A stretch of DNA of 64,000 bases, taken from Spirochaetaceae bacterium (GTDB lineage: Bacteria; Spirochaetota; Spirochaetia; B11-G9). The stretch is taken from assembly GCA_015493635.1 (NCBI GenBank), contig WGCU01000026.1:7718-71717 (forward strand), read 5' to 3'. This document shows, one piece after another, positions 13,890 through 23,143 of this stretch. The position numbers and the translations under genes are program-made. The notes under the pieces were generated by a model, which saw nothing but the letters and a program-made list of their open reading frames with translations, had not been told where the DNA came from and ran no database searches. Each line of letters opens with the position of its first letter. The first letter of the stretch is position 1.

Positions 13890-15512
13890 TTAATTTTCTG
13901 TAAGCCTTGATACCGAATTGAACATCTCTTTTGTATATGCTGCCGAGTCTTTTACAAGTGAATGAACGAGGTCAGTGGAATCCGCTATACTGTCTGCATC
14001 GGTAGATATTTCTCCGGATACACCTTTGATAATTTTAATAAAATCAGACACTTTGAGTAATTTTTCTTTTGCGTTTTTCTGATCCGCCGTTATTTTGCCG
14101 GATCCCTCTCTGATACTTATTGAGCTGTCCTGAAGCACCTGCATGGACTTCATTATTTCCTGACCTCCTTCAGAAAGTTCTGCTGTGGAACCTGTTATCT
14201 CCGAGAACGCTTCGGACACAAGTTTTATTTCGGTAACGAGTTGTTCAAAGATTTTATTTATTTTTTCGGTATGGGATTTCGACATATCCATACTTCCAAT
14301 AAGGTTTTTCAAACTGTCGGCAATAATTCGTGAGTTTTCAGCTGTTGATCCCGCCAGCTTACGTATCTCATCCGCTACCACAGCAAAACCTTTTCCTCGT
14401 TCACCCGCATGTGCTGCTTCAATGGCAGCATTCATGGAAAGCAGGTTGGTTCTGTCCGCAATATCCGAGACAATCTTGTTTATATCAAGCAGGGCATGAG
14501 CATCATTTGCAGAAACCTCAACAGCTGAATTTGTCTCCTTCATTGCAGTTTTTCCCTCTTCTGCAATATTCAGAAGTGCATTGGTAGTATCTCTCTTGGC
14601 AGAAGTAATTTTGGCAACATTATCCAGCGAAGCTGACATCTGATTTACTGCAGCAGTGGATTCTTGAACAACAGTATTCTGCTCTTCTACCTGCAGATCA
14701 AAGTTTTCCACCTCGTTTGTTGTATTATCAACATAGGAAAGAGCTTCTTTCATATTGACAGAAAGGTTTTCCGCGTTTGTTGTAAAATGTTTCAGATGCT
14801 CCTTTATGGAGGAGCTTCCTTCAAGTATGTGTATAAAGTTATCTTCTACCGATTGGTTGGACGTTGCAGATAACTCGGCTGTTTTTACAACGTTCTGGAT
14901 TCTCTTTATGGTTTCTTCACTTTCATGTTGGGTTTTTTCCATGAACTCCATTGATCGACGGACATTTTTTGCAATATGAATTGAGAATAGAGTAAGCAGG
15001 GTATACAGTACTCCTGCAACAATCAGCCGTTCAGGTATACGGTTTATATCATCAGATTTTAGGATGGGGACTAGTTTGGTAAAAAAAGCTGCAGGAATCA
15101 CTACTGCTCCAATTGCAGCGGATACAATGGTAAACCATTCCGAATCGCTTACTACCAGTGAGAGTATAATCGGGAGGCTCATGTACAGTGTCAGCTGATA
15201 AATTTGATAAACAGAGACGGGGCTGATGATGAATGATAATCCTATAAGTGCGAGCTGTGAAAAAGCAAGGGGCATGACACTTGCGAATCTGTAGAAACCT
15301 TTAAAAAGCGCAATCATGGAAGCAACCATGGCTAACAAGATCGTAAACTCAACAATGACTGTTACCATGTCGCCGTCAATAATTTTTTGTACAATTATAA
15401 TAGGTGTTGTACTCAAAATAACTGTTATGACAAAAAATACCCCTGATACCTTATTTTTGATAACAATTCCGGAATCTTTATAGATTTCCTGTAGTTTTTT
15501 ATTTATATACAT
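13890..15512 (-). CDS. methyl-accepting chemotaxis protein (multi-TM sensor + MCP signalling domain)
   Basis: Highly conserved MCP signalling hairpin [31 protein letters not shown]. About 6 N-terminal TM helices. Start uncertain (15512 or 15557). Confidence 0.85.
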
Positions 15513-15597
15513 AATGTAAGTGTAATATCTATTTGCATATATAGCAATATCTCTCAAGTGCCTACCCTGAATTAGCTATGAAAGGAATAGAAAGTTC

Positions 15598-15626
15598 TTG
15601 ACTTTTGCACATAAGTGCATTATATT
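15598..15626 (+). promoter_or_regulatory. sigma70-like promoter TTGACT-N17-TATATT with embedded 14-bp palindrome TGCACATAAGTGCA (candidate operator)
   Basis: -35 at 15598-15603 and -10 at 15621-15626. A perfect 5-4-5 inverted repeat at 15606-15619 lies in the spacer. RBS AAGGATGG sits 5 nt before the DUF134 ATG (15652). Confidence 0.45.
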
Positions 15627-15651: not shown

Positions 15652-16107
15652 ATGCCGAGGCCTAAAAAAGAACGGCTGGTCAGAAGGCCGCCGCTGTATA
15701 CAGAGTTTAAACCCGCAGGGGTTATGCGAAATTCCCTGAAGCAGGTTGTTTTGGAACTTGATGAGCTGGAAGCGATACGGCTTGCAGATTATCTGGGGAT
15801 GGATCACTCTGAGGCAGCGGAAGAGATGGAGATCTCCCGTTCAACGTTTACACGGCTGGTAGAAAAGGCACGGAAGAAGATTGCCGTGTTTCTTGTTGAA
15901 GGATTGAACCTCTCCATAGAGGGAGGGAATATCCACTTCAGGGGTAATGTGATCCAGTGTCTAGATTGTGGGCATATGTTCAATACCGGGTTTGATGTAA
16001 ATATCACAAAGTGTCCGGCCTGCGGTTCTGAACGTTTGGTTGATCTTGCCGGAGGTTTTGGACATGGAGCATGCTGCCGGGGGCATAATCATCGAGGCAG
16101 GAGGTAA
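15652..16107 (+). CDS. DUF134/UPF0251 family predicted DNA-binding protein with C-terminal zinc-ribbon extension
   Basis: MPRPKKERLVRRPPLYTEFKPAG...LELDELEAIRLADYLGMDHSEAAEEMEISRSTFTRLVEKARKKIAVFLVEG is the canonical DUF134 (sigma-70 region-4-like HTH). An extra C-terminus follows: CLDCGHMF...CPACGSE plus a His/Cys/Arg-rich tail GHGACCRGHNHRGRR. Confidence 0.8.
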   Translation: MPRPKKERLVRRPPLYTEFKPAGVMRNSLKQVVLELDELEAIRLADYLGMDHSEAAEEMEISRSTFTRLVEKARKKIAVFLVEGLNLSIEGGNIHFRGNVIQCLDCGHMFNTGFDVNITKCPACGSERLVDLAGGFGHGACCRGHNHRGRR

Positions 16108-16110
16108 AAA

Positions 16111-16440
16111 ATGCCAAGAGGAGACAGAACTGGACCTAATGGAATGGGCCCGCGGACAGGAAGAGGCGCCGGGTTTTGCAACGGTTATAACAGACCGGGA
16201 TATATGAACGGCGGTGCCGGAACAGGATTTGGTTACGGTAGAGGTATGGGACGCGGCTATGGCCGCGGCATGGGGTACGGATACGCGCCTGTTGGCGGTT
16301 ATACTGCACCCTATGGAGTATCCTATACTCCCTACAGTAAGGAAACAGAGAAAGGCTACCTGGAAAATGAGATCAGTATTTTAAAAGAACAGCTTAAGGC
16401 TTCAGAAGCACGGCTTGCTGATCTTGGAGACGAAGAGTAG
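16111..16440 (+). CDS. DUF5320 family glycine/tyrosine/arginine-rich small protein with C-terminal coiled coil
   Basis: N-terminal MPRGDRTGPNGMGPRTGRGAGFC matches the DUF5320 signature. A G/Y/R low-complexity segment follows (GYGRGMGRGYGRGMGYGY), then an amphipathic helix LENEISILKEQLKASEARLADL. Confidence 0.7.
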   Translation: MPRGDRTGPNGMGPRTGRGAGFCNGYNRPGYMNGGAGTGFGYGRGMGRGYGRGMGYGYAPVGGYTAPYGVSYTPYSKETEKGYLENEISILKEQLKASEARLADLGDEE

Positions 16441-16491: not shown

Positions 16492-16722
16492 ATGCCTGGA
16501 AACGGTATGGGTAATGGAACAGGAAGAGGCCAGGGGCTTGGCAGAAGCGGCAGCGGCCGCGGTAGAAACGGCGGCGGCGGGTTCGGTTCCGGCGGGTACT
16601 GTGTGTGTGCTCACTGCGGAGCAAAAGTGCCGCATGCCAGAGGGACAAAATGCACAGATCTGCGGTGCCCTGAGTGCGGGAAGCCTATGGTTCGGGAAGA
16701 ATTGCTGAACAAGAAAAAATAA
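16492..16722 (+). CDS. glycine-rich small protein with C-terminal Cys/His zinc-ribbon (DUF5320-related N-terminus)
   Basis: MPGNGMGNGTGRGQGLGRSGSGRGRNGGGGFGSGGY followed by CVCAHCGAKVPH...CTDLRCPECGKPM. RBS AGGAGG sits 6 nt upstream. Confidence 0.6.
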   Translation: MPGNGMGNGTGRGQGLGRSGSGRGRNGGGGFGSGGYCVCAHCGAKVPHARGTKCTDLRCPECGKPMVREELLNKKK

Positions 16723-16732
16723 AGGAAGCACC

Positions 16733-17599
16733 ATGAAGATAGCAATTGCCAGCGGGAAAGGCGGAACGGGGAAAACAACCCTCTCTACCAATCTCGCTGC
16801 TTTTTTAGCGGAGAAAGAACATGTTGTTCTTACCGATCTGGATGTGGAAGAGCCGAACTCCGGACTCTTTATTAAAGGGACCCTGAAACATTCTGAATCA
16901 AAATACAAGATGATACCTGAATGGGACTCCGCTTACTGTAATCTCTGCGGGATATGTCAGGAGGTATGCAATTTTAACGCTGTTTTAAAAATGGGGAAAA
17001 ACATTATGGTTTTTCCCGAATTATGCCATGGCTGTTATGCATGTTCTGAGCTCTGTCCAAAAAATTCTCTTCCCATGAAAGAAAAGCCTATGGGGGAATT
17101 AAAACATTTTGAAGCTGCCGGTCTTTCTTTTATTGAGAGCAAGCTTCTTATAGGAGAGGAACAGGCTGTTCCTTTGATAAAGCAGACGATAGATTATGTG
17201 GATGAAAATTTTCCGGAAGAAATCATAAAAATATACGACTCTCCTCCGGGAACATCTTGTCCTGTTATTGAAGCAACAAAACATGCTGATATTGTTATTC
17301 TTATCACTGAACCGACTCCTTTCGGGTTTCACGATCTTACATTGGCCGTTGAAACGATCAGGGAGCTGAAAAAAGAATTTGTTGTTGTTGTAAACAGGTA
17401 TGGAATCGGAGATGACAGTGTGGAAAAATATTGTAAAGCGGAAGGGATTACCATTATCGGAAAAATACCAAATGACCGGAAAGTAGCGGAAGTTTATGCA
17501 AAAGGTGATCTTCTTTATCCGGCTCTGCCGTCTGTAAAAAAAGTTATAGAAAAAATCGCGCTTTTTATTCAGGGAGAACGGGGAGACTCAGGACGATGA
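16733..17599 (+). CDS. MinD/Mrp-superfamily P-loop ATPase with inserted 2x[4Fe-4S] ferredoxin domain (COG1149-type)
   Basis: Deviant Walker A IASGKGGTGKTT. Two ferredoxin motifs: CNLCGICQEVC and CHGCYACSELCP. ParA/MinD-like C-terminal half. Confidence 0.85.
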   Translation: MKIAIASGKGGTGKTTLSTNLAAFLAEKEHVVLTDLDVEEPNSGLFIKGTLKHSESKYKMIPEWDSAYCNLCGICQEVCNFNAVLKMGKNIMVFPELCHGCYACSELCPKNSLPMKEKPMGELKHFEAAGLSFIESKLLIGEEQAVPLIKQTIDYVDENFPEEIIKIYDSPPGTSCPVIEATKHADIVILITEPTPFGFHDLTLAVETIRELKKEFVVVVNRYGIGDDSVEKYCKAEGITIIGKIPNDRKVAEVYAKGDLLYPALPSVKKVIEKIALFIQGERGDSGR

Positions 17600-18465
17600 A
17601 AGAGATTGTTGTTATTTCAGGGAAAGGCGGAACAGGAAAAACATCCATAACAGCTTCTTTTGCCGTTTTGGGAGGGGCAAATCTTCTTGTAGCGGACTGT
17701 GATGTCGATGCTGCTGATATGCACCTGCTTCTGGAACCGGATTTTGCCGGAGATGAAGATTTTTACAGCGGAGAGGTTGCCGAAATTGATCAGGAAACAT
17801 GTATTCAGTGCGGGAAGTGTGCCGAAGTATGCAGGTTTGATGCAATCCCTGTTGTAGATGGCAAGTATACTGTTGATCCTCTATCCTGTGAGGGATGCGG
17901 ATACTGTGCAAGAATATGTCCGGTAAAGGCGATTACAAACTCGGTTCAGAGAGTAGGTAATCTGTATACCTCATCAATCCGTACCGGGACAAAAATGATT
18001 CACGCAAAATTGGGAATTGGAAACGAAAATTCCGGTAAGCTGGTTGCAAAGGTAAAAAATGACGCGAAAGCTCTCGCTGAAAAAGAACAGAAGAATTATA
18101 TTCTTGTTGACGGTTCTCCGGGAGTTGGGTGCCCTGTTGTTTCTTCTCTTTCCGGTGCAACATTTGTTGTTCTTGTAACGGAACCGACTGTTTCCGGTGT
18201 TCATGATTTAATAAGGGTTTATGAACTGGTAAAAAAGTTTAAAATAAACGCCGGCTGCATTATAAATAAGGCGGATATCAATCCGGAAAGAAACAGGGAA
18301 ATAAAAGACTTTATAAGGAAGGAATCTATTACACTTCTTGCGGAGATTCCATATAATGAAAATTTCACAAAAGCGATGACCATGGGAAAGACAATTGTAG
18401 AGTTTGATAGTATATTGAAGAAAATAATTGTGGATTCCTGGGAAAAAATAAAACAAAAAGCTTAA
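17596..18465 (+). CDS. MinD/Mrp-superfamily P-loop ATPase with inserted 2x[4Fe-4S] ferredoxin domain (second paralog)
   Basis: ISGKGGTGKTS Walker A. Ferredoxin motifs CIQCGKCAEVC and CEGCGYCARICP. The ATG overlaps the upstream stop by 4 nt (ATGA). Confidence 0.85.
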   Translation: MKEIVVISGKGGTGKTSITASFAVLGGANLLVADCDVDAADMHLLLEPDFAGDEDFYSGEVAEIDQETCIQCGKCAEVCRFDAIPVVDGKYTVDPLSCEGCGYCARICPVKAITNSVQRVGNLYTSSIRTGTKMIHAKLGIGNENSGKLVAKVKNDAKALAEKEQKNYILVDGSPGVGCPVVSSLSGATFVVLVTEPTVSGVHDLIRVYELVKKFKINAGCIINKADINPERNREIKDFIRKESITLLAEIPYNENFTKAMTMGKTIVEFDSILKKIIVDSWEKIKQKA

Positions 18466-18480: not shown

Positions 18481-18813
18481 ATGAAAATTATATTTACAGC
18501 AAAAGGGACGGAGTGGGATTCCCCTATGGATCCGAGATTCGGCCGTACGGAATATTTTTTCATCTATGATGAGGATTCCAAAAAAATTGAAACGTACGAC
18601 AATCGAGCTATTGAAAATGAAGCGCATGGAGCAGGGCCGAAAACATCTCAAAAACTCGCTGAATATGGAGCGGATATTTTAATTACCGGTAACGGACCTG
18701 GAGGAAATGCAGCAGCAGTTTTACAGCAGGTGGGAATAAAAGTTATTACCGGTGCGGGTGATATGACCGTTAAAGAGGCGTATGAAGCTTTTAAAAATGG
18801 AACATTGAGCTGA
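18481..18813 (+). CDS. NifX/NifB-like dinitrogenase FeMo-cofactor-binding family protein (PF02579-like)
   Basis: MKIIFTAKG...PRFGRTEYFFIYDEDSKKIETYDNRAIENEAHGAGPKTSQKLAEYGADILITGNGPGGNAAAVLQQVGIKVITGA matches the Nitro_FeMo-Co fold pattern (hFGr..yf.iyd......e.i.n....hg.G...a..L...g.dv.itg.iG..A...L...GI.V). Confidence 0.8.
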   Translation: MKIIFTAKGTEWDSPMDPRFGRTEYFFIYDEDSKKIETYDNRAIENEAHGAGPKTSQKLAEYGADILITGNGPGGNAAAVLQQVGIKVITGAGDMTVKEAYEAFKNGTLS

Positions 18814-18814
18814 T

Positions 18815-19207
18815 ATGAAGTCCCTTATAATTGCTGCAGCGACCGATGATGGAGAAAACTTTATTAGTAGGCATTTTGGAGACGCGGGATATTATAATCT
18901 TTACCGGCTTACTCCGGAGAAAGCTGAATTTATAAAAAAGATCACCAATGTATCAGAGAAAGAACGGATGCATGCGGATCCTGGTAAAGCACAGGGTATC
19001 ACCGAAATACTGAGAAAAGAAAAGGTTCAGGTTGCTGCTTCAAAAGTGTTTGGGCCTAATATTAAACGGATAAAGAAAAAGTTTGTTTGTGTTCTTACAA
19101 ATGCAAATTCTATTAACGAAATACTCATCATTCTGCAAAAACAGTTCTCCCGGCTCACTCAGGAATGGGAAGCAGGAGAGGTAAGAGAAGTCATCAGACT
19201 GCAGTGA
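18815..19207 (+). CDS. NifX/NifB-like (Nitro_FeMo-Co family) protein, second divergent paralog
   Basis: IIAAATDDGENFISRHFGDAGYYNLYRL...HADPGKAQGITEILRKEKVQVAASKVFGPNIKRI retains the family pattern. Starts 2 nt after the previous gene. Confidence 0.65.
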   Translation: MKSLIIAAATDDGENFISRHFGDAGYYNLYRLTPEKAEFIKKITNVSEKERMHADPGKAQGITEILRKEKVQVAASKVFGPNIKRIKKKFVCVLTNANSINEILIILQKQFSRLTQEWEAGEVREVIRLQ

Positions 19208-19213
19208 GGATGT

Positions 19214-19414
19214 ATGAAACAGACTGAATGTAAATGGTTTCCTGTCTGTCCCATGAAGTATTTCTTTGAGAGAGGGATGGTTGCTGAAAAGTACATCCTC
19301 GCTTACTGCAAAGGAGATAACAAATCCTGTGTACGTTATCAGAAAGAGGAAGCGGGGATATATCATCCGGATAATATGCTACCGGACGGAACAATTGATA
19401 AAAGTTTAGTTTAA
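19214..19414 (+). CDS. small cysteine-rich protein (C-x5-C ... C-x6-C), hypothetical metal-binding
   Basis: 66 aa, MKQTECKWFPVCPMKYFFERGMVAEKYILAYCKGDNKSCVRY..., last gene of the operon. No family recognised from sequence alone. Confidence 0.45.
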   Translation: MKQTECKWFPVCPMKYFFERGMVAEKYILAYCKGDNKSCVRYQKEEAGIYHPDNMLPDGTIDKSLV

Positions 19415-19611: not shown

Positions 19612-20478
19612 CTATCCGCTTTTTATAAGAATAATTGCAATAAGAGATAAGGAGACTGCAGCTATTCTTAAAAGTGTTAATTTTTCTTTATAGATGATGG
19701 CTGAAAGAAAAATAGGAATGAGAATTGAAAGGGCAAAAATGGGCTGAACAAGTGCCATACTGCCTGCGGCGAATGCTTTCAGGACAAAAATATATCCAAA
19801 AAAATTAAGAACTCCTATGGATCCCCCAATAATAAAGATTTTTGGAGTTTTGAAAGTCTTTTTGCGCTGTTCCGGAGGTATCCGTGTTTTGTAAAGGAGG
19901 AATGAGATACCGGTAACTATTGAGTAAGAGATAAAAATATAGATAATTTTATCCGTTTTTGTCGATGCCAATTTACCTGCTGTCATGGAGAAAGATGTGC
20001 AAACCGCAGCAAGAAGGGCAAATCCGATGCCTGCCAAGGGTGTTTTGTTTATACCCTTTACGTGCTCCATGGACAGAAGGATCAGCACAAAAACCGAAAG
20101 TGCTGCTCCTGCCCATTGTTCCGGAGCCGGGGTTTCACGGAAGAATACCACTCCGATAATAATAACAATAACGACATTTGATTTATTTACCGGGAATACA
20201 ACAGCCGCAGGTGCACGTTTTAAGGCGTTGAATTTTGAAAGAGCTCCAAGGGCAAAAAATGTGCCGTTAAACAGTGCAAAGGGCAGGGCAGAGACAAAGA
20301 GTGATAGATTGTGGTGATCCAGAATAAGCACGGTGAGAGAGCAGAGAACAACGGAAAATGCAGATATAAGGACTACTCCCTGGGTAACAAGTTTATATTC
20401 CGCGGCAATTTTATATAGAAAATTAAGCGATCCGTAAAAAAGTGTTGCGGTGATGCTGTATATAAACCATAACGGCAC
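19612..20478 (-). CDS. DMT-superfamily (EamA-like) membrane transporter
   Basis: 288 aa, 10 predicted TM helices in two repeated halves. Hydrophobic throughout, with an EamA-like pattern. Confidence 0.75.
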   Translation of the reverse strand: MPLWFIYSITATLFYGSLNFLYKIAAEYKLVTQGVVLISAFSVVLCSLTVLILDHHNLSLFVSALPFALFNGTFFALGALSKFNALKRAPAAVVFPVNKSNVVIVIIIGVVFFRETPAPEQWAGAALSVFVLILLSMEHVKGINKTPLAGIGFALLAAVCTSFSMTAGKLASTKTDKIIYIFISYSIVTGISFLLYKTRIPPEQRKKTFKTPKIFIIGGSIGVLNFFGYIFVLKAFAAGSMALVQPIFALSILIPIFLSAIIYKEKLTLLRIAAVSLSLIAIILIKSG

Positions 20479-20498: not shown

Positions 20499-22115
20499 TT
20501 ATAGAGTTTCAGAAAAATTACCAAGCTGCTGGTATTTCTTGTACATCTGATAGTAAAGAGCGGCCCGTTCGGAGTCTGGTTTGTATTCTGCCGAGGTGCC
20601 GGGAGCCATAGCCTGCTGTGCAGCTTGTATGTTTTTATGCAGACCTGCGATTACAGAAGCAAACATTGCGGCGCCTATGGCAACCGGTTGTTTTGAATTA
20701 ACAATACGGATGGGTTTATTCAGTACATCTGCCATAATCTGCATAACAAAGGGAGATTTTTCAGCAACCCCCCCGACAGCAAGAATGGTATCAATACTGA
20801 TTTTTTCTTTAGTGAATCTGTCCATAATTGCTTTTGATCCGAATGCGGTCGACTCAACAAGAGCTCTGTATATTTTCGGTGCGGAAGTACCTAATGTAAG
20901 CCCTGTCAGCATCGCTTTTACATGGGGATTGCTGTCAGGTGTTCTCCTTCCATTAAACCAGTCGAGAGCAATGATACTACTATCAGGAGGGATCAGCGCT
21001 GCTTCTTTCTCAAGCTGTTGAAGAATTCCGCCTGGTGTTTTTGAATTTCCCTTTTCCATCCCCCAGGACAGTATACCTGCATACCAGGCATAAACATCTC
21101 CAAAAGCTGACTGTCCTGCTTCGTATCCGGTGTATCCGGGAATAATGGACCCGTCAACCTGTCCGCTGATACCTTGAATAATTTTATCAGGATCAGCCCC
21201 CTTTTCTGATATAATCATGTCACATGTTGAGGTCCCCATCACTTTTACCATGGTTCCCGGAGTAATACCGCCACCAACGGCACCAATGTGAGCGTCAAGA
21301 GCTCCTGAACCTACCATCGCTTCACGGTTTATCCCAAGCCGCTTTGCCCAGTGAGCGGATATTTTCCCTGCAGCTACATCAGCCGGTACAGTATTTGTGT
21401 AAAGTCTTTCTCTGAGACCCGAGAGCAGGGGATCAAGAGATACAAGAAACTCCTCTGAAGGAAGGCCTCCCCAGCTTTCATGCCACATAGCTTTGTGCCC
21501 GGCAGTACAGCGTGACCGCACCATGGAGGAAAGTTCCCCCTCTGTCAGAAGGTATGGTATCCAGTCACTGTGTTCCACCCATGACCATGCCGCAGCTCTG
21601 ACTTTGCTGTTGTGTCTGAGTGTGTGGAGGATTTTAGCCCAGAACCATTCGGGAGAATAGATCCCGCCGGAATATCTAGTATAATCAATGCCGCCCCATG
21701 TTTTGGCATGGGTGTTAATGGCTTCAGCTTCTTCAATGGCGGTATGATCTTTCCATAGAATGAACATTGCATCCGGATCATTCTTGAATGGCTCTTTTAA
21801 TGCCAGCGGAATCCCTTCACGGTTTACCGCACAGGGAGTCGAGCCTGTTGTATCAACTGATATTCCCAGGATATTTTCGCCGGTTCCCGGTCCAGCTTCA
21901 TTCAGTGCTTCCCGGACTGTTATTTCCAGCCCTTCCATATAGTCCAATGGATGCTGCCGGAAACGGTTCTGTTCAGGATTACAAAAAAGACCTTCTTTCC
22001 ATCGGGTATAGGGACAAACTGCCTGTCCCCGTATTTCCCCGGTTACTGCATTAACAATGACACTTCTGACACTGTCAGTTCCGAAATCAATACCCATTAC
22101 CAGTTTATCAATCAT
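20499..22115 (-). CDS. araB: L-ribulokinase (FGGY carbohydrate kinase family)
   Basis: Collinear with E. coli AraB: MGIDFGTDSVRSVIV, ISVDTTGSTP, MFILWKDHTAIEEAE, YSGGIYSPEWFWAKILH, WHESWGG, GTSTCD, GQSAFGD, LDWFNGRRTP. Start set at MIDKLVMGIDFG, with RBS GGAGG 7 nt upstream. Confidence 0.85.
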   Translation of the reverse strand: MIDKLVMGIDFGTDSVRSVIVNAVTGEIRGQAVCPYTRWKEGLFCNPEQNRFRQHPLDYMEGLEITVREALNEAGPGTGENILGISVDTTGSTPCAVNREGIPLALKEPFKNDPDAMFILWKDHTAIEEAEAINTHAKTWGGIDYTRYSGGIYSPEWFWAKILHTLRHNSKVRAAAWSWVEHSDWIPYLLTEGELSSMVRSRCTAGHKAMWHESWGGLPSEEFLVSLDPLLSGLRERLYTNTVPADVAAGKISAHWAKRLGINREAMVGSGALDAHIGAVGGGITPGTMVKVMGTSTCDMIISEKGADPDKIIQGISGQVDGSIIPGYTGYEAGQSAFGDVYAWYAGILSWGMEKGNSKTPGGILQQLEKEAALIPPDSSIIALDWFNGRRTPDSNPHVKAMLTGLTLGTSAPKIYRALVESTAFGSKAIMDRFTKEKISIDTILAVGGVAEKSPFVMQIMADVLNKPIRIVNSKQPVAIGAAMFASVIAGLHKNIQAAQQAMAPGTSAEYKPDSERAALYYQMYKKYQQLGNFSETL

Positions 22116-22168
22116 ACACAACCTCCGATACTTTGAGTATAACATTAAAAAAACTTTAGACAAAGTAA

Positions 22169-23143
22169 ATGATAAAAGGTATAGTGGTTCTTATGGATGA
22201 CATATGTGAAAGAATAAGTTCTATCGGTGTTTTGCCTGTAGTAAAAATAGAGAATGCGGGAGATTCTGAGAATTTGGCAGCTTCTCTTCTTGCGGGGGAT
22301 CTTCCTGCCGTTGAAATTACCTTCAGAACAGATGCCGCGGAAGAGTCAATGAGACGGATTAGAAAAAAATTTCCGGCTATGCTGCTGGGCGCAGGTACTG
22401 TTCTGACCATTGACCAGATCAAGAGAGCCGTCGGGGCGGGAGCTGACTTCATGGTAGCTCCGGGGTTTAATCCGAAAATTGCAGCGTACTGTACAGCTCA
22501 CGATATTCCGTTCTTTCCCGGAATAAATGCTCCCAGTCAGATAGAAGCAGCACTGGAATACGGGTTGGATGTGCTGAAATTTTTCCCTGCTGAAGTTATG
22601 GGCGGGATAAAGATGGTAAAAAGTCTTGCTGCTCCCTACGGTCAGGTTAAATTTATTCCTACCGGCGGCATCAATGTCAGTAATCTCAATGACTATCTGT
22701 CCTTGTCTGTTGTCCTTGCATGCGGAGGGAGCTGGGTTGCTCCGGCTCATATGATACGTGAGGGGAGATTTGATGATATAGCAAAACTTGCCCACGAAGC
22801 TGTTTCAACAGTTTTAGGATTTACACTGTCCGGAGTACAGCTGGCAACTCCTACCGGAAATGACAGAGAATCCGTTCTTGATTTTTTTGCTTCGGCTTTC
22901 CTGCTGAACAAAACGGAAAATGAAACAACAGTTACTGCCGGCGGAATAATTGAGGTTGATAAAATGATGACCGGAAATGGTTCTGGTAACCGGCTGATAT
23001 TTTCAACACACAGCCTTGTAAGAGCCATGGCATTTTTTAAGAGAAAAAAGATAGCCTTTGAAGCGAAATCCAATCCGGATGAGCTTATTCTTCTTAAACA
23101 AAAGGGCGGATTTGAAGTAAAAGTTGTCGAGGGGGCAAAATAG
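22169..23143 (+). CDS. KDPG/KHG aldolase (Eda-like) with ~110-aa C-terminal extension of unknown function
   Basis: First ~215 aa align with Eda (LPVVKIE..., VEITFRT, GAGTVLT, FMVAPG, KFFPAEV.GG, FIPTGGI). A C-terminal ~110 aa (…[36 protein letters not shown]…[12 protein letters not shown]) has no counterpart in classical Eda. Confidence 0.7.

Follow-up and report, generated by a model that had tools for sequence, protein, structure and literature searches.

A conserved pair of ferredoxin-containing MinD/Mrp-class ATPases lies in an operon with NifX-like proteins and matches the ORP complex of Desulfovibrio vulgaris

Two adjacent genes, here called A and B, encode P-loop ATPases of the MinD/Mrp class, each with an inserted ferredoxin domain, and the locus raises the question of whether the two products work as one unit and what such a unit would act on. 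An earlier note on this DNA had taken them for a heterodimer that delivers electrons or clusters to NifX-like carriers. We analyzed the two genes, their operon and the rest of the window (the whole 64-kb stretch of DNA that was analyzed), together with related loci from other genomes. The features of the gene pair are as follows.

16733..17599, + strand: ORF A, A-type MinD/Mrp-class ATPase with an inserted 2x[4Fe-4S] ferredoxin domain, 288 aa; Orp4-like by gene order
17596..18465, + strand: ORF B, B-type MinD/Mrp-class ATPase with an inserted 2x[4Fe-4S] ferredoxin domain, 289 aa; Orp3-like by gene order
17596..17599, + strand: ATGA start/stop overlap of A and B (ATG of B at 17596-17598, TGA of A at 17597-17599)
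16754..16777, + strand: deviant Walker A GKGGTGKT of A, residues 8-15, with the signature lysine K9
17620..17643, + strand: deviant Walker A GKGGTGKT of B, residues 9-16
16937..17059, + strand: ferredoxin insert of A (C69, C72, C75, C79; C98, C101, C104, C108, P109)
17800..17922, + strand: ferredoxin insert of B (C69, C72, C75, C79; C98, C101, C104, C108, P109)
17258..17260, + strand: Cys176 of A in DSPPGTSCP, at the switch II position, seven residues past the Walker B Asp
18130..18132, + strand: Cys179 of B in DGSPGVGCP, at the switch II position, seven residues past the Walker B Asp
18265..18276, + strand: NKAD motif of B (NKxD, G4-like), where NR stands in A-type proteins

A and B have in common CxxCxxCxxxC (residues 69-79) and CxxCxxCxxxCP (residues 98-109), and Pfam gave CbiA/ParA P-loop and Fer4 dicluster matches in both, which confirms the GKGGTGKT and the two CxxCxxCxxxC-type motifs previously read in each protein. 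The description of the genes as tandem paralogs with an ATGA overlap also proved correct, the two proteins being 28% identical over 279 residues (E 4e-36). The coordinates given with it, 17596-18465, are right for B and wrong for the pair, as A lies outside them. In the family alignments, the Walker A of A, each of its eight ferredoxin cysteines, and Cys176 were at least 90% conserved. In the alignment made of members of both paralog families, the Walker A of A and Cys179 of B were invariant, and in the locus-derived set the conservation of Cys179 was at least 90%. The NKxD motif was at least 90% conserved in B-type proteins only, A-B fusions included. Outside the ferredoxin insert, A has only two cysteines (C176, C234) and B only three (C35, C179, C221).

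Homologs of A and of B number at least 8000 each, belong to the "MinD superfamily P-loop ATPase" group, and range from Spirochaetes to methanogens. Related loci were taken from a search of genome contigs (the 80 best loci); D. vulgaris is not among them, and two Desulfovibrionaceae loci (L045 and L069) carry A-then-B pairs. Across 80 genomes the mean identity was 48% between A-type proteins, 51% between B-type proteins, and 29% between the two types. Orthologs from different phyla are approximately 70% identical for A and approximately 70% for B, compared with 28% for A against B. Scored against the A-type and B-type HMMs, ORF A reached 547 and 137 bits and ORF B 150 and 549 bits, respectively; the margin was at least 69 bits for the loci listed. 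A and B are ancient, separable paralog families.

The two families are also kept together. A lies directly 5' of B in 67 of the 82 loci listed, in bacteria and archaea, and the two are fused in 3; an NTGA overlap of 4 nt is kept in 37 of the 67 gene pairs and an overlap of any length in 46, in archaea too. This order and overlap form a pattern far beyond chance, and among the loci examined where the contig permits the check, there was no case of B without A. Natural A-B fusions of about 600 aa made up 32 of the best 150 representative clusters, and a dedicated fusion search gave at least 120 clusters. When the 32 fusions were checked half by half, the N-terminal half was A-type and the C-terminal half B-type; the fusions retain both P-loops, the 16 ferredoxin cysteines, and both switch-II cysteines. 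An origin of the fusions as gene-calling artefacts was rejected on account of the linker of approximately 30-40 residues between the halves and their occurrence in many clusters, in several phyla, and on contigs of several sources. The AF2 model of a fusion (pLDDT 89.6, pTM 0.90) forms one compact body.

A and B therefore very probably form a 1:1 heteromer. The proposal in the earlier note of a heterodimer of two paralogs thus gains indirect support from the conserved pairing, the A-B fusions, and the pTM of the fusion model, and also from the literature, since Orp3 of D. vulgaris co-purifies with Orp4 and Orp8, and these proteins hold Fe-S (PMC6345978).

The pair lies in the middle of an operon whose other features are the following.

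15598..15626, + strand: sigma-70-like promoter candidate TTGACT-17-TATATT, just 5' of the first gene of the operon
15652..16107, + strand: DUF134 protein (HTH and C-terminal zinc ribbon), probable operon regulator (PF02001, E 4e-23)
16111..16440, + strand: DUF5320 protein, IssA-tail-like, with a cationic segment rich in Gly, Arg, and Tyr ahead of an acidic coiled coil (PF17253, E 3.5e-29)
16492..16722, + strand: 76-aa protein, Gly/Arg-rich at its N-terminus, with a zinc ribbon of the form CxxC...CxxC
18481..18813, + strand: NifX-like protein 1 of the orange-protein / MTH1175 / TM1290 type, Orp8-like (PF02579, E 5.5e-20)
18815..19207, + strand: NifX-like protein 2, divergent subfamily (PF02579, E 8.7e-7, 29.6 bits, cutoff 26.3)
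19214..19414, + strand: 66-aa protein with four invariant Cys and YHPDxMLPD; last gene of the operon

Sigma-70-like sites are no more numerous in this region than in shuffles, and the placement of the candidate is sensible; no sigma-54 -24/-12 element was found upstream of the operon. Among the related loci, DUF134 is found near A/B in 34%, DUF5320 in 60%, and the 76-aa zinc-ribbon protein in 38%. The DUF5320 protein consists of 33% Gly and 11% Arg, with a pI of 10. In other genomes these small proteins occur joined to NifX-like domains: DUF5320 C-terminally in four loci, the 76-aa zinc-ribbon architecture in one (phmmer E 2.5e-12), and DUF134 in one of the two Desulfovibrionaceae loci (L069). 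Fusion of a NifX-like domain to a Gly-rich tail, as in IssA, was seen in six loci.

The most constant neighbor is the NifX-like gene, which lies within 4 kb of A/B in 43 of 47 loci (91%), in 0 to 4 copies per locus. With two Nitro_FeMo-Co (PF02579) ORFs 3' of B in the operon itself, the previously suggested link to NifX-like carriers holds well. NifX-like protein 1 matched the PDB sequences 1RDU (E 9e-16), 2WFB (the orange protein of D. gigas, E 3e-15), and 1EO1 (E 2e-10). NifX-like protein 2 matched no PDB sequence, and its orthologs take the same position in four related loci. The 66-aa Cys protein had no match in Pfam or NCBIfam, and its homologs adjoin or lie near A/B pairs in three loci. 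A Mrp-like ATPase gene occurs within 4 kb in 36% of the related loci; Pfam analysis of one of these genes, in L026, showed the fusion of Mrp/NBP35 to NifX known from MrpORP.

This gene set matches the anaerobe-specific ORP complex of D. vulgaris and is no new kind of system. The novelty implied by the earlier note was consequently not upheld, the gene set of the ORP complex having already been described. From the published description, the gene order, and the Desulfovibrionaceae loci, A is probably the Orp4-like and B the Orp3-like member. The ORP-complex literature cited here reports no ATPase, redox, or transfer activity of Orp3/Orp4-type proteins, and a search of the literature on COG1149, COG1433, inserted ferredoxin domains, DUF134, and DUF5320 found nothing on the A/B family.

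Our main reading, to which we assign a probability of about 0.6, is that the locus encodes an ORP-complex-type system in which the A:B pair performs ATP-gated electron transfer and/or cluster hand-over on NifX-like carriers. The obligate A/B pairing, the fusions, the linkage to NifX-like genes, and the frequent IssA-like tails point away from cell division and toward ATP- and redox-driven handling of Fe-S or metal-sulfide cofactors. The function that we infer for the A/B pair is ATP-driven handling of Fe-S or metal-sulfide species on NifX-like carriers; which way the chemistry runs and what its substrate is in the cell belong to this inference.

In the proposed anatomy, the 2x[4Fe-4S] ferredoxin domain would be inserted after switch I in A and in B, and the two proteins would assemble 1:1 as a pseudo-symmetric heterodimer of presumed geometry, carrying four [4Fe-4S] clusters and one conserved switch-II cysteine per subunit. 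The signature lysine is intact in A and in B, so each can form an ATP-sandwich dimer. Nucleotide binding and hydrolysis at the A/B interface would shift switch II and the ferredoxin domains, and this shift would gate electron transfer, the passing on of an Fe-S or heterometal-sulfide species, or both. NifX-like carriers of the orange-protein or IssA type would be the partners, along with the proteins with Gly/Arg-rich tails (DUF5320 and the zinc-ribbon protein), and DUF134 would be a likely cofactor-sensing regulator in place of the sigma-54/OrpR control of Desulfovibrio.

A wider picture of the whole operon is put forward tentatively, as a possibility that we ourselves find doubtful: it might be a nitrogenase-independent iron-sulfur-handling machine of anaerobes, to which A:B would supply energy and electrons as NifH does in FeMo-cofactor maturation. 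Such a machine would load, reductively remodel, or mobilize polymeric Fe-S (thioferrate-like) or heterometal-sulfide species on NifX-domain carriers of the ORP/IssA type, with the Gly/Arg tails split off as the DUF5320 and zinc-ribbon proteins. Its two nucleotide sites may differ, given the conserved NKxD of B-type proteins and the NR found there in A-type proteins; they could have different nucleotide specificities or be used in an ordered, asymmetric cycle of hydrolysis.

The alternative that survives best, although rather unlikely, is that A:B is purely an ATP-driven low-potential reductase of the NifH, BchL, or CfbC type, which pumps electrons into a separate catalytic partner and does not have the NifX-like proteins as substrates. 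The orp operons of the Desulfovibrio homologs are expressed only at low redox potential, about -425 mV (PMC8359166), as would suit such an enzyme. NifH and BchL are among the structural matches, and A and B both contain dicluster ferredoxin domains of the low-potential type. In both subunits a cysteine follows the Walker B Asp by seven residues, as D125 and C132 are spaced in NifH, and by this spacing the switch-II cysteine may correspond to NifH Cys132. However, a NifD/K-, BchN/B-, or CfbD-like partner is absent nearby in every locus examined, the second NifH ligand, Cys97, has no equivalent in A or B, and the Pfam Fer4_NifH match reached 20.8-23.7 bits, under the cutoff of 25. When the A/B alignment was compared by hhalign with NifH of A. 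vinelandii (an approximate sequence), only 45 N-terminal columns were covered, from the P-loop to switch I.

The fold of the proteins bears on a second alternative. A PDB sequence search with A and B found no full-length homolog, only ferredoxin or P-loop fragments being matched, and the AF2 model of B (pLDDT 89.4) had its best PDB fold matches in MinD, FlhG, ParA, NifH, and ApbC, with TM scores of 0.6-0.73 (target-normalized). MinD 1HYQ gave the TM of 0.73, normalized to the target, and the deviant Walker A and signature lysine are present. Such matches, together with the intact lysine, favor the view that A and B are membrane-binding regulators of cell division or chromosome segregation, whose ferredoxin domains sense redox and for which the NifX-like proteins are accessories. 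The C-terminal helices of A and B likewise contain amphipathic 11-mers with muH 0.56-0.67, and a putative role in cell division has been proposed in print for the ORP complex of D. vulgaris, with a predicted C-terminal amphipathic helix in Orp3/Orp4 and a polar localization of MrpORP (PMC6345978, PMC3897727, PMC4672049). Nevertheless, we consider this positioning role improbable. The publications proposing it term the division role tentative; the operon contains no min genes for MinC/MinE partners, MinC, MinE, FtsZ, and Par genes are absent from it and from the related loci alike, and the constant partners (NifX-like, Mrp-like, and IssA-tail-like) are metal-cluster proteins. In the model of B the C-terminal helix packs into the fold with pLDDT >90, and the C-terminus of the A half is internal in the widespread fusions, which would leave it no free membrane anchor. 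The NCBIfam scores were 46-62 bits for minD_arch against a cutoff of 202 and 40 bits for minD_bact against 213.

It is highly improbable that A and B form two independent homodimers, A2 and B2, that merely share an operon and serve different clients, e.g., one NifX-like protein each: MinD/ParA-class proteins are normally homodimeric, A and B each keep all catalytic motifs so that neither needs the other for catalysis, and two NifX-like genes stand alongside two ATPase genes, but the A-B fusions keep a fixed order over many phyla, the fusion chain is modeled as a single body, the conserved 4-nt overlap favors equimolar synthesis of A and B, B does not occur without A where contigs permit the check, A:B stays 1:1 while NifX-like genes vary from 0 to 4 per locus, and Orp4 was pulled down by Orp3 (PMC6345978).

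Among the uncharacterized gene sets of anaerobes, bacterial and archaeal, that of the A/B pair is one of the most widespread, and the Desulfovibrio ORP complex is the only experimental model of a pair of this type. If our main reading, ATP-gated hand-over on NifX-like carriers, is true, it would fill a gap in the iron-sulfur storage and delivery of strict anaerobes outside the Isc, Suf, and Nif pathways.

Several known systems can be compared with this one. G3E GTPases share NKxD with the B-type proteins, which is insufficient alone for membership. ArsA was the only PDB chain aligned over both halves of the fusion model; like the fusions, it is a single chain with two homologous deviant-Walker-A halves arranged as a pseudo-dimer, and its metal(loid) interface site comes from cysteines of both halves. 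However, the two superpose poorly overall (TM 0.36-0.38), and ArsA lacks Fe-S domains and has a membrane pump as its partner. MinD, FlhG, and ParA have the same fold and the GKGGxGK[ST] motif with the signature lysine used for ATP-sandwich dimerization. MinD differs in having neither a ferredoxin insert nor a switch-II cysteine, the MinC/MinE or ParB partners are absent here, and MinD-type proteins are homodimers, whereas A and B are a fixed paralog pair.

NifH, BchL, and CfbC are, as A and B would be, SIMIBI-class dimeric ATPases whose hydrolysis is coupled to low-potential electron transfer and metallocluster maturation. NifH also serves the NifX/NifB cofactor-carrier pathway, and the neighbors here are NifX-like; the cysteine seven residues after the Walker B Asp is a further likeness. 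In NifH, one [4Fe-4S] cluster is bridged by two Cys per subunit, whereas the clusters here would lie in the inserted ferredoxin domains, each A/B subunit has a single conserved interface Cys, and no NifDK-like partner accompanies them.

Cfd1-Nbp35, Mrp, and ApbC also belong to this class of P-loop ATPases and take part in delivering Fe-S clusters. Two paralogs make up the Cfd1-Nbp35 heteromer, the Walker B sequence D-x-PPGT is common to A-type and Mrp proteins, and Orp3/Orp4 of Desulfovibrio receive clusters from MrpORP. The Mrp family of Pfam (PF10609) covered only residues 2-62 of A/B, and the C-terminal CxxC of Mrp/NBP35/ApbC, the ligand of the bridging cluster, is absent in A and B. Among the metallochaperone NTPases (CooC, HypB, UreG), metal-binding interface motifs are the CXC of CooC and the CH of HypB, and no CXC motif was found outside the ferredoxin domain of A/B. 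Of the likeness to NifH, CooC, and ApbC drawn in the earlier note, the functional analogy thus remains, while membership in these families does not, since their cluster-ligand features (two Cys in NifH, CxxC in ApbC/Mrp, CXC in CooC) are absent.

For IssA, the iron-sulfur storage protein of Pyrococcus furiosus, and the MTH1175-type proteins, the points of comparison in the operon are an MTH1175/ORP-type NifX-like domain and Gly/Arg/aromatic cationic segments that resemble the IssA tail. Here the tail-like segments are placed on separate ORFs with a coiled coil or a zinc ribbon, and a text search of the IssA paper found no mention of an ATPase partner, Mrp, or an operon (PMC5524996).

The closest system is the ORP complex itself. 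The operon here differs from it in having no MrpORP (Orp9), no Mrp/NBP35 (MrpORP) gene being present in the whole 64-kb window, and no sigma-54/OrpR/IHF control region, and this absence of MrpORP, a sigma-54 promoter, and OrpR from the window suggests a reduced or variant gene set. It is a single, DUF134-headed, co-directional operon compared with two divergent operons in D. vulgaris, and it has DUF5320, the Gly-rich zinc-ribbon protein, and the 66-aa Cys protein in addition. What the two have in common is an adjacent paralogous pair of MinD/Mrp-like P-loop proteins with two CX2CX2CX3C [4Fe-4S] motifs each, NifX-like ("Di-Nase", IPR003731) neighbors that include a homolog of the orange protein (Orp8), and a restriction to anaerobes.

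Genes A and B lie in a tightly packed operon of eight genes on the plus strand, with a candidate promoter directly 5' of it:

15598-15626, +, sigma-70-like site, candidate promoter by sequence
15652-16107, +, DUF134, operon gene 1
16111-16440, +, DUF5320, operon gene 2
16492-16722, +, 76-aa Gly-rich zinc-ribbon protein, operon gene 3
16733-17599, +, ORF A, 288 aa, stop TGA at 17597-17599
17596-18465, +, ORF B, 289 aa, start ATG at 17596-17598
18481-18813, +, NifX-like protein 1 (PF02579, "dinitrogenase iron-molybdenum cofactor")
18815-19207, +, NifX-like protein 2 (PF02579, same description)
19214-19414, +, 66-aa Cys-rich protein, closing the operon

The end of A and the start of B share the sequence ATGA. 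The earlier note had described overlapping tandem paralogs with a Walker A motif and a double ferredoxin, and these are real, as the ORFs, motifs, Pfam matches and A-B alignment agree; its interval, 17596-18465, is the B gene and leaves A outside. A sigma-54 element was searched for 5' of the operon, and none was found.

The ORF 5' of the operon (13890-15557, -) looks like a methyl-accepting chemotaxis protein, judged by eye from its translation, and the 3' flank holds ORFs at 19612-20478 (-), 20499-22163 (-) and 22169-23143 (+). Identical 3' genes on contig L004, which carries a related A/B locus, are assigned by Pfam to EamA (transporter family), FGGY (sugar-kinase family) and Aldolase PF01081 (KDPG-aldolase family). 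These flanks look unrelated to metal-cluster biology, so the operon appears as an isolated insert amid sugar-metabolism and chemotaxis genes. The 66-aa protein had no match in Pfam or NCBIfam; its family is small and conserved, marked by four invariant cysteines and the motif YHPDxMLPD..ID, and homologs adjoin or sit near A/B in three other phyla (L009 7238-7441, L036 8124-8339 and L049 5586-5813).

Both proteins start with the deviant Walker A motif GKGGTGKT; in each, residues 69-79 read CxxCxxCxxxC and residues 98-109 CxxCxxCxxxCP, and Pfam assigned to each a CbiA/ParA P-loop and several Fer4 dicluster matches. Aligned over 279 residues, A and B are 28% identical (E 4e-36), which makes them clear paralogs. 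Secondary structure and motif positions place the double [4Fe-4S] module after switch I of a MinD core. The AF2 model of B (mean pLDDT 89.4) retrieved archaeal and bacterial MinD, FlhG/FleN, Soj/ParA, NifH, BchL and ApbC as top PDB folds, with target-normalised TM scores of 0.6-0.73. No solved structure matched the full-length sequence of A or B; the matches covered ferredoxin modules or the P-loop N-terminus only. Membership in the MinD, Mrp/NBP35 or NifH families was rejected, as the defining features of each are lacking: NCBIfam MinD models scored 40-62 bits against cutoffs above 200, the Mrp/NBP35 model covered only the first ~60 residues and its C-terminal CxxC is absent from both proteins, and the NifH Pfam score was below threshold, with hhalign of the A/B alignment against NifH aligning no more than the stretch from P-loop to switch I. 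Close homologs are publicly named "MinD superfamily P-loop ATPase" (JGI/IMG) and "(4Fe-4S)-binding protein" or "ATP-binding protein" (NCBI).

Searches with A and with B each returned at least 8000 homologs at E <= 1e-10. Among the matches listed, the best were ~70% identical and came from Spirochaetes, Cloacimonadota, Bacteroidota and Marinimicrobia, and the closest named homologs, from "Spirochaetes bacterium", reached 81%. Many contigs were apparently common to the two hit lists, which suggests that the paralogs are co-located, and the contigs examined from these lists contained both genes. A scan with one genome per species provided a locus set (best 80 loci) spanning many bacterial phyla and archaea (Methanohalophilus, Methanocellaceae, Methanothrix, Altiarchaeota). 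HMMs for the A-type and B-type, built from the independent hit lists and applied to the locus-derived proteins, separated them cleanly, with score margins no smaller than 69 bits (A-type) and 162 bits (B-type). Mean identity in this set was 48% for A-A, 51% for B-B and 29% for A-B (maximum 38%). A lies directly 5' of B on the same strand in 67 of the 82 loci analysed and is fused to it in three (L019, L075, L078); the remaining loci have a contig end, a frameshift split or an A gene lying over 600 nt upstream. The two genes share a 4-nt NTGA overlap in 37 of the 67 pairs and overlap to some extent in 46, including the archaeal L043, L065 and L076. This recurrence, in archaea too, marks the overlap as an old conserved trait rather than an accident of the window's genome. 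Judged from these comparisons, A and B are best described as two ancient, obligately paired families.

Both families keep the P-loop with its signature lysine, the switch I DxD, the Walker B Asp and all eight ferredoxin cysteines, and from these motifs both subunits look catalytically competent. They also share a cysteine exactly seven residues past the Walker B Asp (D-SPPGTS-C176 in A, D-GSPGVG-C179 in B). This D+7 spacing equals that of D125 and C132 in NifH, a likeness of spacing alone. A pure NifH-like reductase is the strongest rival reading of the pair, and against it stands the lack of a catalytic partner encoded close by in the loci examined. DVEEPN, an Mrp-like PPGTsCP, EPTPFG and an NR after the next strand are found only in A-type proteins; DcDVDA, eNSGKLV and NKxD, where A has NR, only in B-type proteins, and NKxD is kept in the C-halves of A-B fusions as well. 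In the window these sites are:

17396-17401, +, NR of A, N222-R223
18265-18276, +, NKAD of B, N224-K225-A226-D227

In GTPases, NKxD is the G4 motif that confers guanine specificity, and its presence in B against NR in A means that the two nucleotide sites may differ in specificity or role.

Neighbourhoods were counted in the 47 loci that extend 3 kb or more to either side of the pair. A NifX-like gene lay within 4 kb of A/B in 43, with at least two such genes in 70%, and an Mrp-like ATPase gene in 36%. In L045 (6868-7242, Maridesulfovibrio), a CGGC-domain protein (PF08821) occupies the usual NifX-like slot directly 3' of B. Against structures, NifX-like protein 1 matched the D. gigas orange protein 2WFB (E 3e-15), TM1290 (E 9e-16) and MTH1175 (E 2e-10). 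In the DUF5320 protein, Gly makes up 33%, Arg 11% and Tyr/Phe 16% of residues 1-75 (pI 10), ahead of an acidic coiled coil, and the 76-aa protein has an N-terminus of 50% Gly and 11% Arg before a CxxC...CxxC ribbon. The chemistry of these segments matches the published description of the Gly/Arg/aromatic cationic C-terminal tail of IssA, the P. furiosus thioferrate storage protein, whose globular part is likewise a NifX-like domain (IPR003731) (PMC5524996). Fusions of NifX-like domains to such tails occur beside A/B:

L029 4054-4608, NifX-tail fusion
L031 3112-3987, NifX-tail fusion
L037 3987-4544, NifX-tail fusion
L038 1652-2245, NifX-tail fusion
L050 3626-4519, NifX-tail fusion
L055 4449-5021, NifX-tail fusion
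L074 3967-4566, NifX-tail fusion

Those of L031, L037, L038 and L050 are Nitro_FeMo-Co plus DUF5320 fusions above the Pfam threshold. In phmmer, the window's DUF5320 protein matched the tails of L029, L031, L037, L038 and L074 at E 8e-7 to 8e-5, and its 76-aa protein matched the NifX, Gly-rich and zinc-ribbon fusion of L055 at E 2.5e-12. The window thus appears, from sequence, to encode a "split IssA". The L031 protein unites three modules in one 291-aa chain: NifX-like, DUF5320 Gly-rich/coiled-coil and double [4Fe-4S] ferredoxin. By these fusions, the constant company of A/B is metal-sulfide carrier or storage-type proteins, not division proteins. A role of the pair in cell division, the published ORP hypothesis, is weakened by this neighbourhood and by the A-B fusions, in which the C-terminus of A is internal.

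In an exhaustive search of 50%-identity representatives with B, 32 of the best 150 matches were ~600-aa proteins. In each, the N-half matched A best (33-44% identity) and the C-half B (35-48%), joined by a linker of ~30-40 residues. A search seeded with one fusion added at least 120 more clusters of fused proteins, whose sources include Lentisphaerota, Victivallales, Kiritimatiellia, KSB1, Krumholzibacteria and Chlamydiota. An alignment of 70 fusions shows little or no variation in the two P-loops, in any of the sixteen ferredoxin cysteines or in the pair of switch-II cysteines, and the first half keeps NR and the second NK.D. The AF2 model of fusion P0242 (614 residues; pLDDT 89.6, pTM 0.90) is weak in the linker only, and this pTM places the two halves confidently relative to each other. 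ArsA, likewise a fused pseudo-dimer, was the sole PDB chain aligned over both halves, with poor superposition (TM 0.36-0.38). The fusions speak for a 1:1 partnership of A and B, and independent A and B homodimers are hard to reconcile with them and with the Orp3-Orp4 pull-down.

The earlier note had proposed a heterodimer that, beside two NifX-like carriers, would fit ATP-gated delivery of electrons or clusters. Anatomy, paralogy, pairing, fusions and neighbourhood were established here for A/B, and complex formation and Fe-S binding have been shown for the Desulfovibrio counterparts (PMC6345978). We infer, as the likeliest model, that A and B would form a pseudo-symmetric ATP-sandwich heterodimer of presumed interface geometry, carrying four [4Fe-4S] clusters in its two inserted ferredoxin domains and bringing the switch-II cysteines, with a putative role for these D+7 residues, to or near the interface. 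Nucleotide would drive switch-II motion, which may gate electron flow and/or the passing of Fe-S or heterometal-sulfide between the pair and the NifX-like carriers with their cationic tails, with direction and physiological substrate equally presumptive. The Desulfovibrio homologs are expressed at low redox only (PMC8359166), which fits a low-potential function. The obligate families, conserved overlap, abundant fusions, B-only NKxD and IssA-tail link offer testable predictions.

In D. vulgaris, the paralogs Orp3 (DVU2103) and Orp4 (DVU2104) each contain two [4Fe-4S] ferredoxin motifs; Orp5 and Orp8 are NifX-like "Di-Nase" domains, and another such domain forms the C-terminus of Orp9 (MrpORP), where it is joined to an Mrp/NBP35 domain; and the purified Orp3/Orp4/Orp8 trio shows an Fe-S spectrum, which MrpORP is able to reconstitute (PMC6345978). 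Transcription runs from DVU2105 to DVU2103 (PMC4641369), and by gene order A would be the counterpart of Orp4 and B that of Orp3. An Mrp-like gene in L026 has exactly the MrpORP architecture; no MrpORP gene was found anywhere within the 64-kb window. DUF134 is an HTH of the sigma-70 region 4 type, to which the window copy adds a zinc ribbon. Its fusion to a NifX-like domain in L069 (4196-5071; Mailhella, Desulfovibrionaceae) suggests a cofactor-sensing transcription regulator in lineages without OrpR. The ORP complex has MrpORP and sigma-54/OrpR control, whereas the window has neither and is a single operon headed by DUF134. The A/B operon is a further, probably spirochaetal instance of the ORP-complex gene set, already described and very common in anaerobes, in a variant with DUF134 in place of OrpR, without MrpORP, and with the IssA-like tails encoded as detached proteins.
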